Shown piece by piece: positions 9,979 through 18,668 of a DNA stretch of 35,892 nt. The position numbers were made by a program, and so were the translations under genes. Source of the DNA: a virus (Duplodnaviria; Caudoviricetes); the IMG/VR virus record IMGVR_UViG_3300049926_000027, positions 1 through 35,892 of that record; one strand, 5' to 3'. The notes below the pieces were generated by a model. The model was not told the origin of the DNA and did not search any database. It saw nothing but the letters and a program-made list of their open reading frames with translations. Positions within the stretch are counted from its first letter, which is position 1. Every line of letters begins with the position of its first letter.

Positions 9979-10591
9979 GGGGATCACCTCGTTCCAGCAA
10001 CGGCCATTCCTCGCCGCGGGCTTCGATCCGAGCTCGCTCACGTGCTCGACCAGCGCCCTTTCGGTAGCTCGGCTTGACCGGCGGAACGTCCGTCACGTGC
10101 GCCCATGTCCGGCCCACAGCGGCGTTGTAGATGACGGCTCGGTCAACCCCGAACACGCCTGCCAGGAGGGTCAGTGACTCAGCCGGGTATCGACGGCGGA
10201 TCGCCCGCACGGCATCGTCGGTCAGCTTCGAGAGGCTGTGCCTCGCGCCTCTTTGGACCGTTTCGGGATGGATGCGCGTGCCGTGGCGGTCGCCTCGGGC
10301 AACGCGCTCGGGATGCAGGATCGAGCCGTTGCGGCCGCGGACCCGCATGTCTCGCATGTTGTCTTGATGGGTTCCGGCGTAGAGGTGACTCGGCCGAACA
10401 CAAGGTGGGTTGTCGCAGCGATGAAGGACGAACAGACCGTCCGGGATCGGCTCGACGTAGAGCCTGTATGCCGTCCTATGGGCGTACAGCCCGTTGCCAT
10501 GTCGCCCATAGCCGTTCGTGGAGAGCGCGCCCGTCCAGACCCAACACCCATCGCTGACCGCGACGTGGCTCATAAACTCAGCGGGATCCAT
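9971..10591 (-). CDS. HNH_3 homing endonuclease with C-terminal HTH
   Basis: CWVWTG..NGYG..AHR..VLHRCDNPPCVRPSHL..GT..DN; SKLT..V..IR..LA..FGV. Confidence 0.92.
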   Translation of the reverse strand: MDPAEFMSHVAVSDGCWVWTGALSTNGYGRHGNGLYAHRTAYRLYVEPIPDGLFVLHRCDNPPCVRPSHLYAGTHQDNMRDMRVRGRNGSILHPERVARGDRHGTRIHPETVQRGARHSLSKLTDDAVRAIRRRYPAESLTLLAGVFGVDRAVIYNAAVGRTWAHVTDVPPVKPSYRKGAGRARERARIEARGEEWPLLERGDPHD

Positions 10592-10778
10592 CGGTGGTCC
10601 CCTTCTCGATAAGCGGCCACTCGTCGCCCCGCTCCACGACGCGAGCCTTGCAAGCGTCGGAGTCGACGCAGCGGTCCACGTTCCCGAAGGGCAGCACGAC
10701 CGACTTCCAGGCGACGAGGGCGGGGCGGACTCGGGTGTGTTCACCGCACAGCTCGCAGGTGCCGATGACGATTGTCAC
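10578..10778 (-). CDS. small zinc-binding protein (66 aa)
   Basis: GTCELCG...RCVDSDAC; GTGA-coupled. Confidence 0.65.
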   Translation of the reverse strand: MTIVIGTCELCGEHTRVRPALVAWKSVVLPFGNVDRCVDSDACKARVVERGDEWPLIEKGTTDGSR

Positions 10779-11032
10779 GCGGAACGCCCACATCGAGGAC
10801 ACGGCTCGGCGGCCCGAATAGCGATCAGGGTTCCGGCGGCCCCATAGACAGCGTCCAGTCGCGCGACAAGGTCATCGCTCGCTCTCTGGCGGCCATGCTC
10901 CAAGTGCGACAGGTAGGTGAAAGCGACGCCGACTTCACCGGCGACATCTCGCAGGGTTCGGTCCGCTCTGACACGCGCCTCCCGGAGGGCAGCGGGCAAG
11001 CCCGGAGGCAGGTCGCGGACTCGGGTCGTCAC
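10775..11032 (-). CDS. XRE-family HTH protein
   Basis: LREARVRADRTLRDVAGEVGVAFTYLSHLEHG. Confidence 0.85.
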   Translation of the reverse strand: MTTRVRDLPPGLPAALREARVRADRTLRDVAGEVGVAFTYLSHLEHGRQRASDDLVARLDAVYGAAGTLIAIRAAEPCPRCGRSA

Positions 11033-11634
11033 GACGCTAGGTCCTTCCGCTGACGCTGGTAGTCGATCTCGGACAGACGGCCCGCCCGGAACTCCTCGCT
11101 CAGATGCTCAAGCGCGCGTCGTCGTTCTTCGTCCTTTCGCTCTTGAGCCGTGAGCTTCGCGCGCCCGCTTGGAGGAACGGACGGACGGACGGTAGGAACG
11201 GAAGGAGCGGACGGTGGCCGCGGTACATCGCGCAGACCGCGCGGTGACCGCGCGGTTACATCGGAGTCTCCGCGCGGTTCGGAACGCCGATTCTCGTTCG
11301 CCCGACGCCATCGTTCTCGGGACTGCTCCCGGCGCTCGTACGCGGGCGTCCACCACCCGTCCCATGCACGCCGGGGCGGAAGGCCATTACGGTCGATCAA
11401 TCGCACCTGAATCATCGACGTGACGACATCAGCATCGAACGGGATCAGTGTCGGCCACGCTTCGGTGACGCTGACCCGGCGACCGGCCTTCCACGATTCG
11501 CCCAACATGGCGACGTAGGCCAGGAATGCAGCGGGCACGTGCTCCGGGTGCTCCCGGTGCAACAGTCGGAACTTCGGATCGTGGACGATGCTGGTGGATA
11601 CGTCCATGACCGGGAATCCATCGTCTCGGCTCAT
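11029..11634 (-). CDS. probable replication initiator
   Basis: N-terminal F..D..I.HDPKF motif, charged helix, Pro/Ser/Arg linker encoded by internal repeats. Confidence 0.65.
   Translation of the reverse strand: MSRDDGFPVMDVSTSIVHDPKFRLLHREHPEHVPAAFLAYVAMLGESWKAGRRVSVTEAWPTLIPFDADVVTSMIQVRLIDRNGLPPRRAWDGWWTPAYERREQSRERWRRANENRRSEPRGDSDVTARSPRGLRDVPRPPSAPSVPTVRPSVPPSGRAKLTAQERKDEERRRALEHLSEEFRAGRLSEIDYQRQRKDLAS
11172..11280. repeat. probable origin iterons inside the initiator gene
   Basis: CCGCGCGGT at 11237, 11248 and 11270; TACATCG twice; strand-biased GGAC/GGAA run at 11172-11214. Confidence 0.55.
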
Positions 11635-11750
11635 CGAGCTACTACCTCGTGAGATGCAACGACGCTCGCACCTCGGGTAGTAGCCGAGACACGAGCGTCG
11701 TTCGGAATGCTATTCGATTGGACGCTACTACCGTCTCGTTCATTATCGCA
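11623..11750 (-). promoter_or_regulatory. structured bistable RNA leader over the rep RBS, with candidate extended -10 promoter
   Basis: Perfect 9-bp and 11-bp complementary segments in interleaved order; TGcGATAAT at 11750-11742. Confidence 0.65.
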
Positions 11751-11786
11751 GGTCGCGCGCGCGCGCGCGAGGCTGACGGGCGTCAT
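11631..11786 (-). CDS. putative leader ORF (51 aa) spanning the RNA structure
   Basis: ATGA overlaps at both ends; low-complexity product. Confidence 0.4.
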   Translation of the reverse strand: MTPVSLARARATCDNERDGSSVQSNSIPNDARVSATTRGASVVASHEVVAR

Positions 11787-12181
11787 GCCGCGATCCTTGG
11801 CCGGCCGATACCGTCGCGGACGGGCCGGTCGAGATTGGCGGCGTAGCGGGATCGCGTCCGCTCCAGACACACGAGCCGGTTGCGTTCGTAGTACCGCTTC
11901 TGTGCCTCGCGCTGGCGGGCGCGGAGCTTGTCACCGAGGACGGGGTCGCGACGCAGCGCGGCCTTTCGCTCCCGGTCTCGTCTCCGTTTGGTCGCCGTGT
12001 CCACAGTCGAGCCGTGAGTCGTCGGCCGGGTCGGAATGGGCCGTCCGTTCTCTCGATCGGCCCGACAGGCGCGGCACGTCACGTACCGGCCACCTTCGTA
12101 GAACTCGGTCACATCCGGCCACCACTCGCAGCACACCCGACAGCGCCGCACGGGTCCGAGGATCGCGTCTGTCCGGGTCAT
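11783..12181 (-). CDS. zinc-finger, Arg-rich protein
   Basis: CRVC..W....EFY....CRAC followed by basic helices. Confidence 0.7.
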   Translation of the reverse strand: MTRTDAILGPVRRCRVCCEWWPDVTEFYEGGRYVTCRACRADRENGRPIPTRPTTHGSTVDTATKRRRDRERKAALRRDPVLGDKLRARQREAQKRYYERNRLVCLERTRSRYAANLDRPVRDGIGRPRIAA

Positions 12182-12540
12182 CCGAACGCGACCATCTGCA
12201 CGGCTTCCGGGATCAGGACGTACTTCGCGAAATGCTTGCCCGATGGGGTGGAGACCGTCTCGGTGTCTATCGGATAGCCCGCGTCTCGGAGTTCCCAGAT
12301 GCGTGCGCCGAGCCGGTAGCAGCCGAGCTCGTTCAGTGCTTGCATCGGCGTGATGGAGCCGTGTCGCTGGAGGTAGGTGAGCACGTCGCGGGTGGCCGGC
12401 TTCATGCCGCTCGCCATCCGACCGTATCCTTGGTGGTTACGTGAGCCGGTCCACACCCAGCATTCGCCGGTCTTGTCGACCTTGGCCCAGAACCGTTCCG
12501 CCAGAGCCTTAGGATGACGCGGGTAGACGCCTATCGGCAT
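12178..12540 (-). CDS. winged-HTH protein fused to an N-terminal HNH-endonuclease fragment
   Basis: ERFWAKVDKTGECWVWTGSRNHQGYG followed by VLTYLQRHGSITPMQAL..GCYRLGARIWELRDAGY.I. Confidence 0.8.
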   Translation of the reverse strand: MPIGVYPRHPKALAERFWAKVDKTGECWVWTGSRNHQGYGRMASGMKPATRDVLTYLQRHGSITPMQALNELGCYRLGARIWELRDAGYPIDTETVSTPSGKHFAKYVLIPEAVQMVAFG

Positions 12541-12826
12541 CGTTGACCTCCCGGAGATAGTCCCGCATGGCTTGACGGTTCGTCTTGTGAGTCGCCCACA
12601 CGTACCCGCCCCTCATGCCTTCCTCGGTATGTCCGGAGCAGAGGGTCACGAGATGGGCAGGATCGGACTTCGCCCGCCGACCCATCCGACCGCCGCCGTC
12701 CTGGACGTGCTCCAGCCTGTTACGGCCAGAGCAATCCATGAACGACCCACCGAGCCGGGGCGCGACGCAACCGCCGTCCCTGTTGAGGACGAACACGGCG
12801 ACGGCGGTGGTCACCTTGTCGCGCAT
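12509..12826 (-). CDS. HNH-like protein
   Basis: RDGGCV...C.G...EHV...HLVTLCSGH. Confidence 0.65.
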   Translation of the reverse strand: MRDKVTTAVAVFVLNRDGGCVAPRLGGSFMDCSGRNRLEHVQDGGGRMGRRAKSDPAHLVTLCSGHTEEGMRGGYVWATHKTNRQAMRDYLREVNDADRRLPASS

Positions 12827-13986
12827 CAGAAGTCGAGGTCCGAGAGGTCGTCGTCCTTAGGCCACAGGGCCTCGGCCGCTGCCTCATCAGCGGGCAGGAT
12901 CCAGTCCGGTGTGACGAGCCGGGTCAGGGTCAGCCGCTGGAACCCCACGTCGTGCTTCTTGGCCCCGGACCCGACCGTCATGGTTTCGTTGCTCACCGCG
13001 CCGAAACACTGGACGCGCTGGCCGATGATGTCGGGGATGAGCGGGGCGAGAACATCGGCCAGCGCATTCCACGCGACCACCTGCACGCGCTGACGGCCCT
13101 CGCCGATGACGAACCCCACCGCCGGACCCTCAGCGCCTTCCCGATACTCACCGTCGACCGGGGCCATCGAACCGAGCGAGGCGATCCCGAACAGCCCCCC
13201 ATCGAACCGCTCGATAGCCGGTGGGGCGGGCGGAGCCTCGTCACGGGGCTGGTCTTCCACGTCCTGCGTGAACAGGCCCGACGCCGCGGTGGCCCGGAGA
13301 GTCGCGTCTACGAACGCGCGTTTCTCCGCCATCTTGAGCAGCGTCGTGTCGAGGTCCCAGGGGTCGGGGTTCTCCACGTCCCCGACCGCCTGAGCCTCGA
13401 TCTCGGCCGTGCCGTCCGGCCACTTGGCGTCACACCCGTCCTTCTTCTTCCAGCAGACCCAGCCGCCGCCGTACTCGGCCTTGCCCTTGATGATGGTCCC
13501 GACCTTCCCGCAGGCCGGACAGGTCCGCTCACCACGGCGGTAGCGATGCTTGCGCTCCCATGAGTTGGCCGAGCCGTATCCGACCGCGACCACCAGCCCC
13601 GACAGCGAGCCGAGGTACAGGTCGCAGCGGGTCTGATAGGACAGGGCGGGCGCGGCGATGCCGTCGCCTACGATGCGCTCGGGCATGAAGTCGGCCGCGA
13701 GTCCGTACGCTTGGCACAGTTTCTCGGCGCCCGGCTTGAGCAGCGTCGGCTTGGGGGTTCCCGGGATCGTCCCGTAGTCCACGTCGAGGACCATGAGCGC
13801 CTTCTGCATCCGGGCGACCCGAGTCCGCATCGTGTCGAGGGCGGTCAGTCGTCGCTCGAACTCCTCATCCGAGAGACCCGCGAGGGCGAGCGGCCCGGTG
13901 GCCGTCATCCCGGGATCGGGAACGACCGCGAGCGCACGCTGCGGTTCGACTTCGACCGCCTCGCCTTCGATGATCTCGGTCGTCAT
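12826..13986 (-). CDS. single-strand annealing protein-like with C-terminal SSB-like domain
   Basis: DYGTIPG..KPTLLKPGAEKL...KMAEKRAFVDA...FTQD; C-terminal VQVVAWNALA...GQRV and acidic tail DDDLSDLDF; ATG 13986 in ATGA overlap. Confidence 0.65.
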   Translation of the reverse strand: MTTEIIEGEAVEVEPQRALAVVPDPGMTATGPLALAGLSDEEFERRLTALDTMRTRVARMQKALMVLDVDYGTIPGTPKPTLLKPGAEKLCQAYGLAADFMPERIVGDGIAAPALSYQTRCDLYLGSLSGLVVAVGYGSANSWERKHRYRRGERTCPACGKVGTIIKGKAEYGGGWVCWKKKDGCDAKWPDGTAEIEAQAVGDVENPDPWDLDTTLLKMAEKRAFVDATLRATAASGLFTQDVEDQPRDEAPPAPPAIERFDGGLFGIASLGSMAPVDGEYREGAEGPAVGFVIGEGRQRVQVVAWNALADVLAPLIPDIIGQRVQCFGAVSNETMTVGSGAKKHDVGFQRLTLTRLVTPDWILPADEAAAEALWPKDDDLSDLDF

Positions 13987-14159
13987 TTCGTCACCACCAA
14001 CGTCTTGCACGAGAGGTTCCGGCAGATGAGGTACGGGCCGACGGGGTAGGCAACGTGAGTGCACGGCGGGTCCGGCCTCACTTGCAGCCGTGCCACGCGG
14101 CCCATGAGTCGGACCACATCCATCGTCGTGAACATGGGCACCAACCCGGAGCGCGGCAT
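13983..14159 (-). CDS. hypothetical protein (58 aa)
   Basis: MPRSGLVPMF...CTH...C....C; overlaps both neighbours. Confidence 0.5.
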   Translation of the reverse strand: MPRSGLVPMFTTMDVVRLMGRVARLQVRPDPPCTHVAYPVGPYLICRNLSCKTLVVTK

Positions 14160-14587
14160 CACGACGCCACCGCCTGAGTGCTCAGCCAGTCCAGCGCGAA
14201 CCGGACAGCGGCGATGCCGTCCCGGCCCCGGCGGTCCTCACGCATGAGCAGGTCGCCGCCGCGGTTCACCCAGACGATGACCGCGGAACGATTCGCCTTG
14301 ACCGACACGCCGATCGTGTAGCCGACGGGGATCTCGTCCTCGAGAGTCGCGATCTCAGCGGGTCCGAACAGCCCCCGCGCCCACGGGGACGACAGGCCGA
14401 GGATGCCGTGAGGCGCGGCAGTGCGCTCGGGCATCGTCTCAGGGTAGCGTCGGAGCAGTCCGCCCCGGTGTCGAGGGCAGCCCGCGTGCTCGGTGCCGGT
14501 GTGGTCGGTCCAGGTGGACAGCCCGACGGTCTGTGAACAGCGGCGCATCTCGCCTTGGTGCCAGAACCGGCCTTCGCAACTGGTCAT
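14159..14587 (-). CDS. hypothetical protein
   Basis: SD AGGAG; Cys/His-rich N-terminus. Confidence 0.7.
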   Translation of the reverse strand: MTSCEGRFWHQGEMRRCSQTVGLSTWTDHTGTEHAGCPRHRGGLLRRYPETMPERTAAPHGILGLSSPWARGLFGPAEIATLEDEIPVGYTIGVSVKANRSAVIVWVNRGGDLLMREDRRGRDGIAAVRFALDWLSTQAVAS

Positions 14588-14593
14588 CTGTGT

Positions 14594-14648
14594 CTCCTAG
14601 TGCCTAGTGCCTAGACCGGGGCGACGGCTAGGCATCCGCCGCCCCGGT
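14594..14648 (-). promoter_or_regulatory. H-type pseudoknot candidate adjacent to RBS
   Basis: 13-bp stem whose loop UGCCUAG is complementary to downstream CUAGGCA repeats. Confidence 0.6.
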
Positions 14649-14660
14649 ATTTGGTCTGGG

Positions 14661-15002
14661 CTAAAACAGCCCGAGGGTGTCGGAGTGGACGCCCGCCGCC
14701 GGGGGGACAGCGGCGGGCATCACGAGGGGAGGTGGGGTGCCACTCGCTGCGTCTTCCGAGCCGACGAACGGCGCCCCGCGAAGAGTCCCGGCCGAAGCCA
14801 CCGGCACATCAGTCCGGCTGGTGGCGTCCCTCTCGGCAGGGGACACCGACTGTCGGGGCTCTTCGCGCGGAGTCGCGGCGGCGTACGCACCAGCGGCGCG
14901 CGGCGTCTCATGGATGGGTCCGATGTAGTGGCGGTCGATGCCGGTCTCGGTGGCGTAGACCCGGTAGCCGGTACCGACGTGCGCGACCATGTACTGGGTC
15001 AT
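14661..15002 (-). CDS. hypothetical protein
   Basis: ATGA-coupled; low-complexity C-terminal half. Confidence 0.55.
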   Translation of the reverse strand: MTQYMVAHVGTGYRVYATETGIDRHYIGPIHETPRAAGAYAAATPREEPRQSVSPAERDATSRTDVPVASAGTLRGAPFVGSEDAASGTPPPLVMPAAVPPAAGVHSDTLGLF

Positions 15003-15103
15003 CGGATGCTCGCGATCAGTGCGACGACCACGATCCCGGCGAACGCAAGGGCTGCCTGCACCCGCTCACGGCGTCGGCGGTGGGCCCAGCCGGAGGGGTT
15101 CAT
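14999..15103 (-). CDS. 34-aa TM peptide
   Basis: MNPSGWAHRRRRERVQAALAFAGIVVVALIASIR; ATGA at both ends. Confidence 0.55.
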   Translation of the reverse strand: MNPSGWAHRRRRERVQAALAFAGIVVVALIASIR

Positions 15104-15369
15104 GCGTCCGGGCCTTCGAGATAGAAGATGGCCGGGGCGTTCCAGCCAACGTCGTGACCGGCGTCGAACGCTTCAACGAAGGCGCGCGCGCCAGCGCTCA
15201 GCGGATAGCCGCAGATTTGATCGGTGGGATACCACCGAGAGTCCCAGACCTCAGCGTGCGGAAGTCCACGGCGATGCAGGGCAAGGGCTAGAGGGCAGGC
15301 CGCGACCTCGCCGCGCCGGCCTTCCGCGATGTCCTCGGCCGTCACCACGACCCGGATGCGCCGCGTCAT
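15100..15369 (-). CDS. hypothetical protein
   Basis: I.V.VTAEDI..G....CPLALAL...FD pattern; coupled. Confidence 0.7.
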   Translation of the reverse strand: MTRRIRVVVTAEDIAEGRRGEVAACPLALALHRRGLPHAEVWDSRWYPTDQICGYPLSAGARAFVEAFDAGHDVGWNAPAIFYLEGPDA

Positions 15370-15464
15370 CGCTCAGGACCGGCGATGAACTCCCAGACGG
15401 CGGTGATGCCGAGGGCGAGCAGGACGAAGCCGAGGCACAGCAGGGCGAGCAGGGTGGGGGTCAC
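15366..15464 (-). CDS. 32-aa TM peptide
   Basis: MTPTLLALLCLGFVLLALGITAVWEF; GTGA-coupled; SD GAGG. Confidence 0.55.
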   Translation of the reverse strand: MTPTLLALLCLGFVLLALGITAVWEFIAGPER

Positions 15465-15670
15465 GACGCTTCCTCGACATGGACCGGCCAGATGCCGGGA
15501 CCGGGGTGGGTCATCGTTGCCGGGTCGTCTCGAACGAAGATCCCGGAACAGGTCGGCTTGCCGCAGTAGCAGCACGCTTGCGGGTCGCCTGTGCCCTTTT
15601 GGGGGGAGGGCGACTCGGGCCGCTGTTCGTCCCAGCAGTCGTCACAGATCGCGTGCGTCCAGTTGCTCAC
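15461..15670 (-). CDS. small zinc-finger protein
   Basis: CDDCW...CCYCG. Confidence 0.7.
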   Translation of the reverse strand: MSNWTHAICDDCWDEQRPESPSPQKGTGDPQACCYCGKPTCSGIFVRDDPATMTHPGPGIWPVHVEEAS

Positions 15671-15867: not shown

Positions 15868-16097
15868 GATGGGTCCCCCTGCCGGATCAACCGGCCGCTC
15901 AGATGGTCGAGACGGCCTGACGCTTCGATGGCCAGGTCGTCGCGCTCGTGGAGGACCGCTCGGTACACGAGCCGGCCCAGATGGCGCAGCTCGAGGCCGA
16001 GCTGGTGGCGTTCGGCGTGGAACGCGACGAGCTCCATGCGGAGGTCGTCGGCCTCGGTCCGGCGATCGGGCTTGCGAGGAGACACGATCGCCATCAC
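15864..16097 (-). CDS. hypothetical helical protein
   Basis: SD AGGAGG; coupled to cro. Confidence 0.65.
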   Translation of the reverse strand: MMAIVSPRKPDRRTEADDLRMELVAFHAERHQLGLELRHLGRLVYRAVLHERDDLAIEASGRLDHLSGRLIRQGDPS

Positions 16098-16324
16098 GCG
16101 ACCTCCTGCCCGTCAGCGGGCTGGCCCGTCGTGACGGTCACGGTTGGGATGGTGCCGAAGGTTGCCAACGCTGCGAGGTAGCGCTTCTCGGCCTTGGCGG
16201 GCACCCGGAGGGCGGTCTCCCAGCGGCTGACCGATGAAGCCGGAACGTCGATCCGTGTGGCGAGGTCGCCCACGGAGACGTTCATCGCGGTGCGTCGGAG
16301 GCGAAGATCGGTGCCAGTACTCAT
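16094..16324 (-). CDS. Cro-like XRE HTH protein (probably leaderless)
   Basis: LRLRRTAMNVSVGDLATRIDVPASSVSRWE; divergent from the repressor; ATG 9 nt below the -10 box. Confidence 0.8.
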   Translation of the reverse strand: MSTGTDLRLRRTAMNVSVGDLATRIDVPASSVSRWETALRVPAKAEKRYLAALATFGTIPTVTVTTGQPADGQEVA

Positions 16325-16333
16325 CAGGTGGCG

Positions 16334-16363
16334 AAGGTACGGCACGTTGCGGCAGTTTGTCAA
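16334..16363 (-). promoter_or_regulatory. early lytic promoter
   Basis: TTGACA-18 nt-TACCTT. Confidence 0.75.
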
Positions 16364-16420
16364 GCGTTTCCGCACAAAGTTGCCGAAAGTTACACGGCTT
16401 GTAGTACGTTCCGCGGCGAG

Positions 16421-16924
16421 ATGCCGACTCCGCTCAACCAAAAACCGCCGATGGCAGCGTGGATCGTTCGGGAGCGCAAGCGCCTGAAGCTGAAGCCGCG
16501 CGACCTGGTCGAGCGCCTGGCCGCTCAGGGGCTGGTCGTCACCGAGGCAACGGTCAAGGTCTGGGAGGCGAATGGCGACCGGCGACCGGCCCCGGAGAAC
16601 ATCGAGGGGCTGGAGCGTATCTTCGAATCCGGCGCGCCCTCAGCGGAGTCGGCCTCAACGTTCGGCCAGAGCGATATGGTCGCCGCGATGGATCGCCAGA
16701 CCGCGGCCATCGATCGGCAGACCGATATGCTGGAGCGGGTGCTGACAGCCCTCGGCGTCAGCCCGCCCGACCCTCGAGTAGCTGAGGCTCAGGCTGACTG
16801 GACGGGAGCTGAACGGCGACTGGCCGAGGAGAAAGCTGGAACCAGCTCGCTACCCCGATCACCCGGCCACGAGCGTCGAACCGGGGCCCCAGGATCAGAG
16901 TCCCGAGAGGTCGATCGAGCGTAA
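16421..16924 (+). CDS. immunity repressor (CI-like XRE HTH)
   Basis: IVRERKRLKLKPRDLVERL....VTEATVKVWEANGDRRP; only early plus-strand regulator, divergent from cro; no S24 peptidase domain visible. Confidence 0.8.
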   Translation: MPTPLNQKPPMAAWIVRERKRLKLKPRDLVERLAAQGLVVTEATVKVWEANGDRRPAPENIEGLERIFESGAPSAESASTFGQSDMVAAMDRQTAAIDRQTDMLERVLTALGVSPPDPRVAEAQADWTGAERRLAEEKAGTSSLPRSPGHERRTGAPGSESREVDRA

Positions 16925-17282: not shown

Positions 17283-18668
17283 ATGGACTTGATGGCGCCG
17301 CCGGAGGTCATCACCACGGACCGGGACGTCGCGTTCGTGACACATGCCGCGCTCTCGCGGTCCGGCTACGCAGCCATCGAAGGAGCCGCCGCCGGTCGCC
17401 CTGGTCGTCTCCTATTCGCGCTGGCCTGCCTGGTTCCGGCGCTGTTCTTGGGTGTTCCCGGAACGGGCGACATGGGGATCTGGGCGCAGTGGATGGCCGA
17501 CGTCGACCGACTCGGGTTCGTCGGTGGTTACGCGGCGATCGCCGATGTGCAGCCACCGCTCAACAGCGTCTTCCTCGGCGTCGTTTCGTGGCTGAGCCAC
17601 GGGCTCGGGTTCGACCCGCTGCTCGGGGTCAAGGTGTCGACCCTGCTCGCCCTCTATCTCACCGGCGCTCTCGTCGCCTACGGCTTCCGGAGCTGGCTTG
17701 CCGGCGCGGTGGTGGTCCTCGTGTTCACCGTGAATGTCGGGCTCGGGTACCTCGACATCTGGTACGCGCCGTTCCTCGTGCTCGCCCTGCTGTCCCTCCG
17801 GAGCGGACGTGTCGCGTGGTTCGCGTTCTGGTTCGCGATCGCGGCGATGGTCAAGGCGCAGCCGCTCATCCTCGCGCCGTTCCTCGTCGTGTGCGCCCTG
17901 CAACAGCCGGTGATGAGACCTGACGGTCGTCTTTCATGGCGCCGGATCCTGTCGCAGCTCGTCGCGCCCGGCGGGGTGGTCCTCGTGCCGCTCGCCGTGC
18001 TCTATGCGCCCTCGATGGTGGCGGCGATGGGCTACGCGGCCAGCGGCCACTATCTCAACGGTCACGCCTTCAACCTGGCGATGCTGCTCAACTACGTCGC
18101 CAACGTGGCGGCGCCAGACGGGATCGGAGCGCCCGGGCTGACCGATGGGATGCTGACCCTCATCCCTCCCGAGCCGCTCGGTGGACTGTTGCGGATCCTG
18201 TTCGCCGCCGTCTATGGGCTGGTCCTCGTGACCTACATCCGCCGGCGCGATCCATCGTTCCGGACCCTGCTCGAGTTCTCGGCGCTCGGCTTCCTGTGCT
18301 ACTTCGCCCTCAACTCGGGCGTGCACGAGAACCACCTGTTCGTCTTCGTGCTGCTGCTCGGGCTGCTGGCTGTCGAAGGACCGGCCTACCGCCCGTGGTT
18401 CGTCGTGTTCGCGATCCTGTCAATCGTCAACCTGCTGCTGTTCTACGGGCTGACCGGGACCGGGCCGGGCTTCGTTCGGACGGTCGGCGGGCTGGACGTG
18501 GCGGTCCCGCTGGCCGCGGTCATGCTGGGGTGCGCCGCGGGCTTCTTCGTCCGGGTCCTACACCGACCAGACTTCCATGATGCCAGGTCCCCAGTAGGCC
18601 GACGTGTTCGCGTTGTCCTTGATGAGGATGCGGCCGTTCTGTCCGCCCGTCCCGTCGGTCCCGTGTGA
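17283..18668 (+). CDS. polytopic membrane GT-C-type glycosyltransferase (lysogenic conversion)
   Basis: About 10-12 TM segments; GDM..W..W, DVQPP, GYLD, KAQP and HENH motifs of GT87/PIG-like mannosyltransferases. Confidence 0.75.
   Translation: MDLMAPPEVITTDRDVAFVTHAALSRSGYAAIEGAAAGRPGRLLFALACLVPALFLGVPGTGDMGIWAQWMADVDRLGFVGGYAAIADVQPPLNSVFLGVVSWLSHGLGFDPLLGVKVSTLLALYLTGALVAYGFRSWLAGAVVVLVFTVNVGLGYLDIWYAPFLVLALLSLRSGRVAWFAFWFAIAAMVKAQPLILAPFLVVCALQQPVMRPDGRLSWRRILSQLVAPGGVVLVPLAVLYAPSMVAAMGYAASGHYLNGHAFNLAMLLNYVANVAAPDGIGAPGLTDGMLTLIPPEPLGGLLRILFAAVYGLVLVTYIRRRDPSFRTLLEFSALGFLCYFALNSGVHENHLFVFVLLLGLLAVEGPAYRPWFVVFAILSIVNLLLFYGLTGTGPGFVRTVGGLDVAVPLAAVMLGCAAGFFVRVLHRPDFHDARSPVGRRVRVVLDEDAAVLSARPVGPV

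Follow-up and report, generated by a model that had tools for sequence, protein, structure and literature searches.

The window analysed here, a whole virus record of 35.9 kb that originates from a soil metagenome, carries terminase, portal, capsid, tape measure and integrase genes. Its minus-strand early operon includes a gene for a 201-aa protein (11029..11634, AUG at 11634), and the RNA cassette that is the subject of this analysis lies inside this operon, immediately 5' of that gene. Near 16.3-16.5 kb two genes diverge: a Cro-like HTH gene (minus strand) and a repressor-like ORF (plus strand), the latter recognised by eye and without a Pfam match. This CI/Cro-like pair spans 16094-16785, and a promoter-like site, TTGACA-17-TACCTT, was read by eye near 16363-16335 (minus). 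The RNA cassette is thus an addition to a protein switch, and with an ordinary CI/Cro-like region in the same phage RNA immunity is not required. Between the tail and the immunity genes, on the opposite strand, an ORF at 17283-18668 (plus) is membrane-protein-like with a weak ALG6/ALG8 glycosyltransferase match and, judged from its sequence, may be a lysogenic conversion gene. A strict sigma-70 scan of 10500-15500 returned no promoter, because it needs a -35 box, and ARAGORN found no tRNA in five sources. The host of the phages that carry the cassette is probably a member of the Chloroflexota; one cassette copy lies in a Chloroflexi record, strong homologues of the initiator occur in 3 of 401 genomes of that class, and one contig with several copies (L242) is labelled Gammaproteobacteria and may be mis-binned.

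The product of the 201-aa gene is likely a replication initiator with a replisome-organiser or Lin1244-like N-terminal domain, as judged from sequence features and modelled structure. An Atlas feature match to Lin1244_N was obtained at 0.94 with 161 shared features, and Foldseek gave weak matches to replisome organisers, the best at E 0.02, and a DnaD N-domain at E 2.7. The protein has no PHROGs family, Pfam gave a sub-threshold C-terminal match only, and a fold search of the PDB returned nothing significant. DnaB is encoded directly upstream of the homologous gene in L010, and the gene occupies an early-operon position in the window.

The cassette is read from the minus strand and comprises two -10-like boxes and three hairpins. 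The outer box, P1, is an extended -10-like element (TG-n-GATAAT, 11742..11750); transcripts from it are predicted to start at the foot of SL1, near 11736-11735. SL1 (11721..11735) is a 4-bp hairpin whose 7-nt loop (11731-11725) forms target A. It is followed by a second -10-like box, TAGCAT (11707..11712, P2), which the initial annotation had missed; its predicted start near 11702-11701 would coincide with the first bases of segment B, and no -35 box is evident for it. SL2 (11658..11702) is a hairpin of 19 bp in which B plus 8 nt pair with 8 nt plus B' (arms 11702-11684 and 11676-11658), and its 7-nt antisense loop (11683-11677) is the core of A'. The folding energy of SL2, the candidate small RNA, is -29.6 kcal/mol. 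SL3 (11635..11649), a 4-bp hairpin, covers the SD (GAGGU, 11648-11644), and its 7-nt loop (11645-11639) is target A2. Neither a U-rich terminator 3' of SL2, which could account for the 3' end of the putative small RNA, nor any terminator-like site within the element was found on the minus strand. A 51-aa ORF (11631..11786, minus strand, leader AUG at 11786) crosses the cassette with ATGA overlaps at both ends and matches PHROG 38030 (E 5e-6); it starts upstream of P1 and so is carried by read-through transcripts only. Directly upstream of P1, at the place expected for a -35 box, an alternating CG palindromic run was observed (11770-11753, minus), as also in L003, L008, L014, L029 and L178; it is possibly a protein-binding site. 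The element as a whole has a folding z-score of -2.3 (3 of 200 shuffles were equally good). The combination of a 9-mer direct repeat with its complement between the copies and an 11-bp inverted repeat was found in 15 of 3577 overlapping 130-nt segments of the genome, all of which fall on the cassette and none elsewhere.

Much of this had been read correctly before. The segments that the initial annotation called A, B, A', B' and A2, and the two AUG codons (11634 and, in the leader, 11786) lie exactly where it placed them, A/A' and B/B' are perfect reverse complements, and the pairing it described with codons 2-4 as well as the 51-aa ORF with its two overlaps are present in the sequence. It was also right that an RNA element covers the ribosome site of the likely initiator gene, and Rfam holds no such element: no match reached the gathering score in the window, so that the element is not catalogued there, and a search at E up to 10 over 11000-12500 returned one chance miRNA fragment only (E 8.8). 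Its mechanism fared differently. B:B' had been taken for the helix of a pseudoknot, but it runs on for eight more pairs into the single stem of SL2 with the core of A' in the loop; and the pairing said to free the SD would cover it instead, since the target overlaps the end of the SD and the spacer.

Further members of the family were sought mainly through the downstream protein, for which 123 homologues were collected. Alignment-based scans returned 8 viral and 28 metagenome loci, and the element was present in 10 of these 36 (L006, L007, L008, L010, L014-L017, L023 and L029); many of the remaining loci were short or had other leaders. L003 was added through a seed pattern, and L006 contains a second copy with a different seed. 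A covariance model built from 12 sequences then yielded five new copies (L178, from a stem-only pattern, L250, and three in L242), so that five members were found after the model had been built, two of them with a seed absent from the training set. L015 and L016 were left out as near-duplicates of L014, which gives a family of 16 elements with 56-88% identity, forming 8 clusters at 80% identity. The seed-only pattern hit true elements at 3 of 73 viral loci, the others being chance matches, and the stem-only patterns gave 19 and 106 loci, of which 95 were searched with the model and yielded one new member. In the protein-based scan of genome contigs, none of 51 stretches was confirmed. Among 151 genomes of the class of G011, the RNA model gave a strong match in G011 only; two weak matches (one in G103) were left out of all counts. 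The cassette was absent from four further virus records with an L003-type initiator, from five of five further genomes (apart from an already known weak match) and from four of five of another record set, all three sets consisting partly of fragments. In a collection of 50,697 cultured-phage records no match was found with either DNA or protein.

In every member the same order is kept: a -10-like box, SL1, a second -10-like box, SL2, SL3 over the SD, and the start codon. SL1 has 3-5 bp and a 7-nt loop, SL2 17-23 bp and a 7-nt loop (-29 to -40 kcal/mol), and SL3 4-8 bp. The SL2 loop pairs at 7 of 7 positions with both the SL1 loop and the SL3 loop in all 16 members, a count that is anchored on the loop, with the targets chosen as the best match within a stretch of 17-22 nt. 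Seven distinct seeds occur among the 16 members, and each is altered in all three places; compensatory changes were found at all seven loop positions (one pair is G-U), and the pairing between the SL3 and SL2 loops is Watson-Crick throughout (7/7 in 16/16). The stems change as well. At the anchored positions of SL1, 63 of 64 pair, six of them as G-U; three of its four pairs are changed on both sides, with 100% of the cells paired, and the same is true of 15 of the 17 modelled SL2 pairs for change on both sides. A stem of 4-8 bp surrounds the SL3 target in all members (eight with a 7-nt and eight with a 9-nt loop), position 1 of this target is always G or A, and the first one or two loop bases are purine-rich SD bases. 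Both -10-like boxes show a TATAAT-like profile in 16 of 16 members: in each, the P1 hexamer is 15-17 nt upstream of the SL1 loop (the scan required A2 and T6), and a P2 hexamer of the form YAnnnT occurs 24-29 nt upstream of the SL2 loop, compared with a background rate of 5.5%. The inner box might instead be an AU-rich nuclease site.

On an alignment fitted to the model, both partners have changed in 26 of 31 pairs, and covariation scores 0.534, compared with 0.201 for shuffles (0 of 500 as high); slid controls reach 0.122 at most. Such counts are tilted in favour of the model. The loop pairing between SL2 and SL3 scores lower there (64% paired, with 5 of 500 shuffles equally high), because the subclass with 9-nt loops sits one column out of register. 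Model scores are strongly asymmetric between the strands (118 versus 18 bits), and this much weaker score of the opposite strand, together with the G-U pairs in the stems, points to RNA. The covariation that the initial annotation had proposed to look for in homologous leaders is thus strong for SL1-SL2-SL3, while the hairpins I and II of its own scheme are incomplete in the other 15 members. Predicted cognate seed duplexes have energies of -7.1 to -9.3 kcal/mol and non-cognate ones -5.3 kcal/mol or weaker, except for one near-cognate pair at -6.8, so by these energy models the seeds are largely orthogonal. L242 holds three cassettes with two seeds, and another contig two cassettes with two seeds. 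In L242 (8052-13373, minus), the cassettes of an initiator-like gene and of an HNH gene share a seed, and that of a NUMOD4-HNH gene has another. The leader is a real, uncatalogued and strongly covarying three-hairpin RNA cassette.

The genes 3' of the cassette are initiator-like in 9 of 16 members, HNH or GIY-YIG endonuclease genes in 5 (two of these five assignments being below the Pfam cut-off) and short ORFs leading into the replication module in 2, where the ORF overlaps the next replication gene. The initiator-like genes belong to several unrelated families and were assigned by position and N-terminal resemblance; one of them is followed by an IstB-like ATPase gene. In L008 an HNH gene stands between the cassette and the initiator, an arrangement that suggests capture of the cassette by insertion. 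The copy in L006 (11230-11816) precedes a GIY-YIG-like gene and adjoins, as read by eye, a partial tRNA-like (attP-like) sequence; ARAGORN found no full tRNA in that region.

C4 controls an antirepressor operon, and the cassette stands before initiator or endonuclease genes. Its logic is nevertheless close to that of C4 and of the P4 CI RNA, as the initial annotation had supposed: a central antisense sequence, a target upstream, and a target over the SD. The CI RNA, according to excerpts of PMC4825925, pairs with seqA upstream and seqC downstream and silences the replication genes, so that there, as here, the antisense RNA lies inside the leader that it controls, on the same strand and with targets on both sides; in the cassette this same-strand arrangement, with an upstream target and a downstream target that covers the RBS, was found in 16 of 16 members. 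Unlike CI, the antisense part of the cassette is one long hairpin whose only seed is a 7-nt loop, and both targets are hairpin loops; CI is processed from the primary transcript, whereas the cassette probably has an internal promoter of its own, at the -10-like box. In P1 and P7, phage specificity resides in variable C4 loops, and pairing at one of the targets occludes the ribosome site (PMC5320573, in excerpt; compare also PMC12197685); and the specificity regions of the cassette likewise covary between phages, with seven seeds. C4 has three stem-loops, two seeds (a' and b') and RNase P processing in the excerpted text of PMC5320573, in contrast to the one stem and one seed of the cassette. 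A three-stem fold with two seed loops was not found, the antisense part being a single hairpin of 17-23 bp, and the conserved internal -10-like box suggests, from sequence, an own promoter rather than release by RNase P. With another fold, a single seed and no Rfam match, membership in the C4 family was rejected.

Other systems share single traits. For Gifsy-1 IsrK, excerpts of PMC4825925 describe a short leader isoform that acts in trans on its own long mRNA, as we infer for the cassette, and an upstream ORF, coupled to the next gene, with an AUGA overlap like that of the 51-aa ORF; IsrK activates and ends at its own terminator, whereas the cassette has no terminator after SL2 and its geometry predicts repression. 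Hairpins that hide the RBS, with an internal promoter that gives a shorter transcript, are also found at the T-even nuclease genes I-TevI, segB and mobE; those hairpins are single, act in cis and are freed by the internal promoter (PMC2988022, in excerpt). In the cassette, unlike there, SL3 is present on either predicted transcript, and loop-loop pairing would exert the control. The repY-repZ system of plasmids works through a pseudoknot. As with IncI-alpha/IncB repY-repZ, a loop pairs near the ribosome site of an initiator and a small ORF lies upstream (repY, excerpts of PMC4288162), but the cassette differs in that no counter-transcript -10 box is conserved, the pairing would cover the SD and the upstream ORF is perhaps not a conserved feature. 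The repY/repZ part of the earlier comparison was accordingly dropped, and membership rejected, on the missing conserved counter-transcript box and the covered SD. A description of the three-hairpin cassette was not found in the literature; the tables of PMC10690425, a set of 10,006 candidate viral RNAs, contain no match for two core motifs or two contig names, and the cassette may be among those candidates.

On balance we favour, by a small lead over doubt, a mechanism in which a small RNA made of SL2 kisses the SL3 loop of other transcripts and thereby shuts off translation of the downstream gene. P2 would start an RNA at SL2 without SL1, and trimming at the 3' end would leave a stable RNA of ~45 nt with its loop free. 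This RNA would bind the SL3 loop in trans, clamp the weak hairpin and mask the spacer as well as the 3' portion of the SD; since the SL3 target overlaps the end of the SD, binding should block ribosomes. On transcripts from P1, SL1 would capture the SL2 loop of the same molecule while it emerges, so that these serve as message and not as repressor, and SL1 may also be a second target or decoy that titrates the small RNA. The predicted outcome is a burst of initiator (or endonuclease) on entry into a naive cell, followed by seed-specific shut-off as the RNA accumulates, and in a lysogen silence together with cross-repression of incoming phages of the same seed. During lytic growth the lock might be bypassed: transcripts begun at the early promoter near 16340 would read through it, and the crossing ORF may then be translated. 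A bypass through translation from upstream is known for P4 orf199.

The geometry of the leader bears on this mechanism. Linkers measure 12-18 nt between SL1 and SL2 and 0-8 nt between SL2 and SL3. A head-to-head kiss of SL2 and SL3 in cis with intact stems would need ~84 A, with at most ~59 A available (estimated from general rise and reach values), so the shorter linker is too short for it; the longer one is just long enough for a cis kiss of SL1 and SL2. In 15 of 16 nascent P1 RNAs, A:A' is predicted at a probability of at least 0.96 before SL2 closes. The short SL2-SL3 linker, the early A:A' pairing and the overlap with the SD together favour trans-repression by a P2 RNA free of SL1. In models restricted to nested pairs, outside which kissing falls, the accessibility of the ribosome site is the same for P1 and P2 RNAs. 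The fold, the covariation and the two boxes are observations; promoter use, the small RNA, the sign of its effect and immunity are predictions of the proposed mechanism.

The same covariation data fit a purely cis-acting switch by promoter choice, in which A holds the SL2 loop on P1 transcripts and leaves the ribosome site usable, whereas P2 transcripts, lacking A, form an H-type pseudoknot with A2 after SL3 opens and are off. The early formation of A:A' during transcription agrees with it, as do the promoter-dependent RBS hairpins known for T4 homing endonucleases (PMC2988022, in excerpt). We consider such a switch unlikely, because all 16 members retain SL3 as a hairpin whose loop holds the target, the linker to SL2 has only 0-8 nt, a promoter that gave nothing except self-silenced RNA would be useless without a product acting in trans, and specificity in trans accounts better for the presence of seven seeds that are divergent and largely orthogonal. 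A reversed sign, with kissing by the SL2 RNA opening the weak SL3 (or SL1) so that ribosomes load in a positive feedback like that of IsrK, seems less likely again: Gifsy-1 IsrK activates its own mRNA in trans ~140-fold (excerpts of PMC4825925) and SL3 by itself hides part of the SD, but the target starts with purine-rich SD bases, so that the spacer and the end of the SD lie within the duplex, and some of the genes controlled are for endonucleases, whose expression is usually kept low.

We give little credit to the switch proposed in the initial annotation, a bistable alternation of hairpins I and II with a pseudoknot, opened by translation of the leader ORF as in repY/repZ. The stems of both hairpins exist in the window, where the four helices, anchored on the seed, have 6/6, 6/6, 7/7 and 9/9 pairs; in the other 15 members only 3-5, 3-5, 3-6 and 3-7 pairs form, even with a slide of 2 nt, and the hairpins are complete nowhere else in the family, on which ground this bistability was rejected. 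SL2 is part of the minimum-energy fold in 14 of 16 members. The exceptions are the window and L003, where the nested A':A2 fold wins by 2.7 and 3.5 kcal/mol, respectively, when kissing is ignored; in these two the A':A2 fold speaks against the SL2 model, and local bistability in the window phage is compatible with the energy models. The crossing frame is open in 9 of the 9 members that have an ATGA/GTGA overlap, compared with a base rate of 33 open frames out of 48, and its start positions vary widely among members; on the opposite strand no -10 box downstream of the element is conserved (best shared position, 4/16). Least credible of all is that the three boxes are DNA sites, either operators or hairpins of a single-stranded DNA origin, that match through repeat homogenisation. 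The site adjoins a likely initiator gene, and several members have the CG run directly 5' of P1, but only the loop bases match, the stems covary independently with G-U pairs, the model scores are strand-asymmetric and the cassette also stands before endonuclease genes; a DNA operator was rejected on the loop-only matching, the covarying G-U stems and the strand asymmetry.

Loop-to-RBS control appears to be recurrent in this phage group. A general scan for it gave 30 matches in 480 kb, compared with 9 in 285 kb of shuffled DNA, and these nine make any single match weak. A second loop-seed element lies in the window at 14648-14587 (minus), where a 13-bp hairpin (14648-14594) has an 8-nt loop with complementarity to a tandem pair of 7-nt repeats; these immediately precede the SD of ORF 14587-14159. 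The seeds of this element and of the main cassette are unrelated. Just upstream, 14980-14660 (minus) is densely structured and has no Rfam match; its fold is multibranched, a long hairpin there carries a C6 loop, and a terminator-like site is present (14980-14575 has a z-score of -3.35). Other leader designs occur within the same initiator family. In L021, L022, L028 and L038, just upstream of the initiator homologue, a long hairpin is followed by a small one with a complementary loop; the SD is on the 3' side, there is no upstream target and the seeds differ. In L009, L025 and L037 the loop of a long hairpin matches sequence immediately preceding the SD; an additional inner hairpin separates the two, and the seeds again differ. 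Upstream of initiator-like genes in L020, L285 and L288, a -10-like box precedes a long hairpin; within its large loop, an anti-SD stretch corresponds to the RBS region, and the two change in step.

To our knowledge, leader-encoded antisense RNAs with both upstream and downstream targets have been known mainly from C4/CI, in phages of proteobacteria. The cassette achieves the same logic with a smaller and structurally unrelated design, in soil phages that are uncultured, and its natural covariation already names the compensatory mutants. It may be, as a tentative extension that we regard as rather doubtful, that it constitutes a portable and programmable 120-nt RNA lock of temperate soil phages, with two promoters, its own hairpin repressor and a swappable 7-letter address, the addresses forming orthogonal immunity groups on top of CI/Cro, several to a genome, and that homing endonucleases have captured the cassette so as to fire once in a naive cell and then stay silent. 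If the cassette acts in trans, it would be a second, RNA-coded layer of immunity or copy control at the replication gene, it would suggest a route to one-shot expression for homing endonucleases, and its seven natural seeds would provide, ready-made, a series of 7-nt translational repressors with little cross-talk between most of them.
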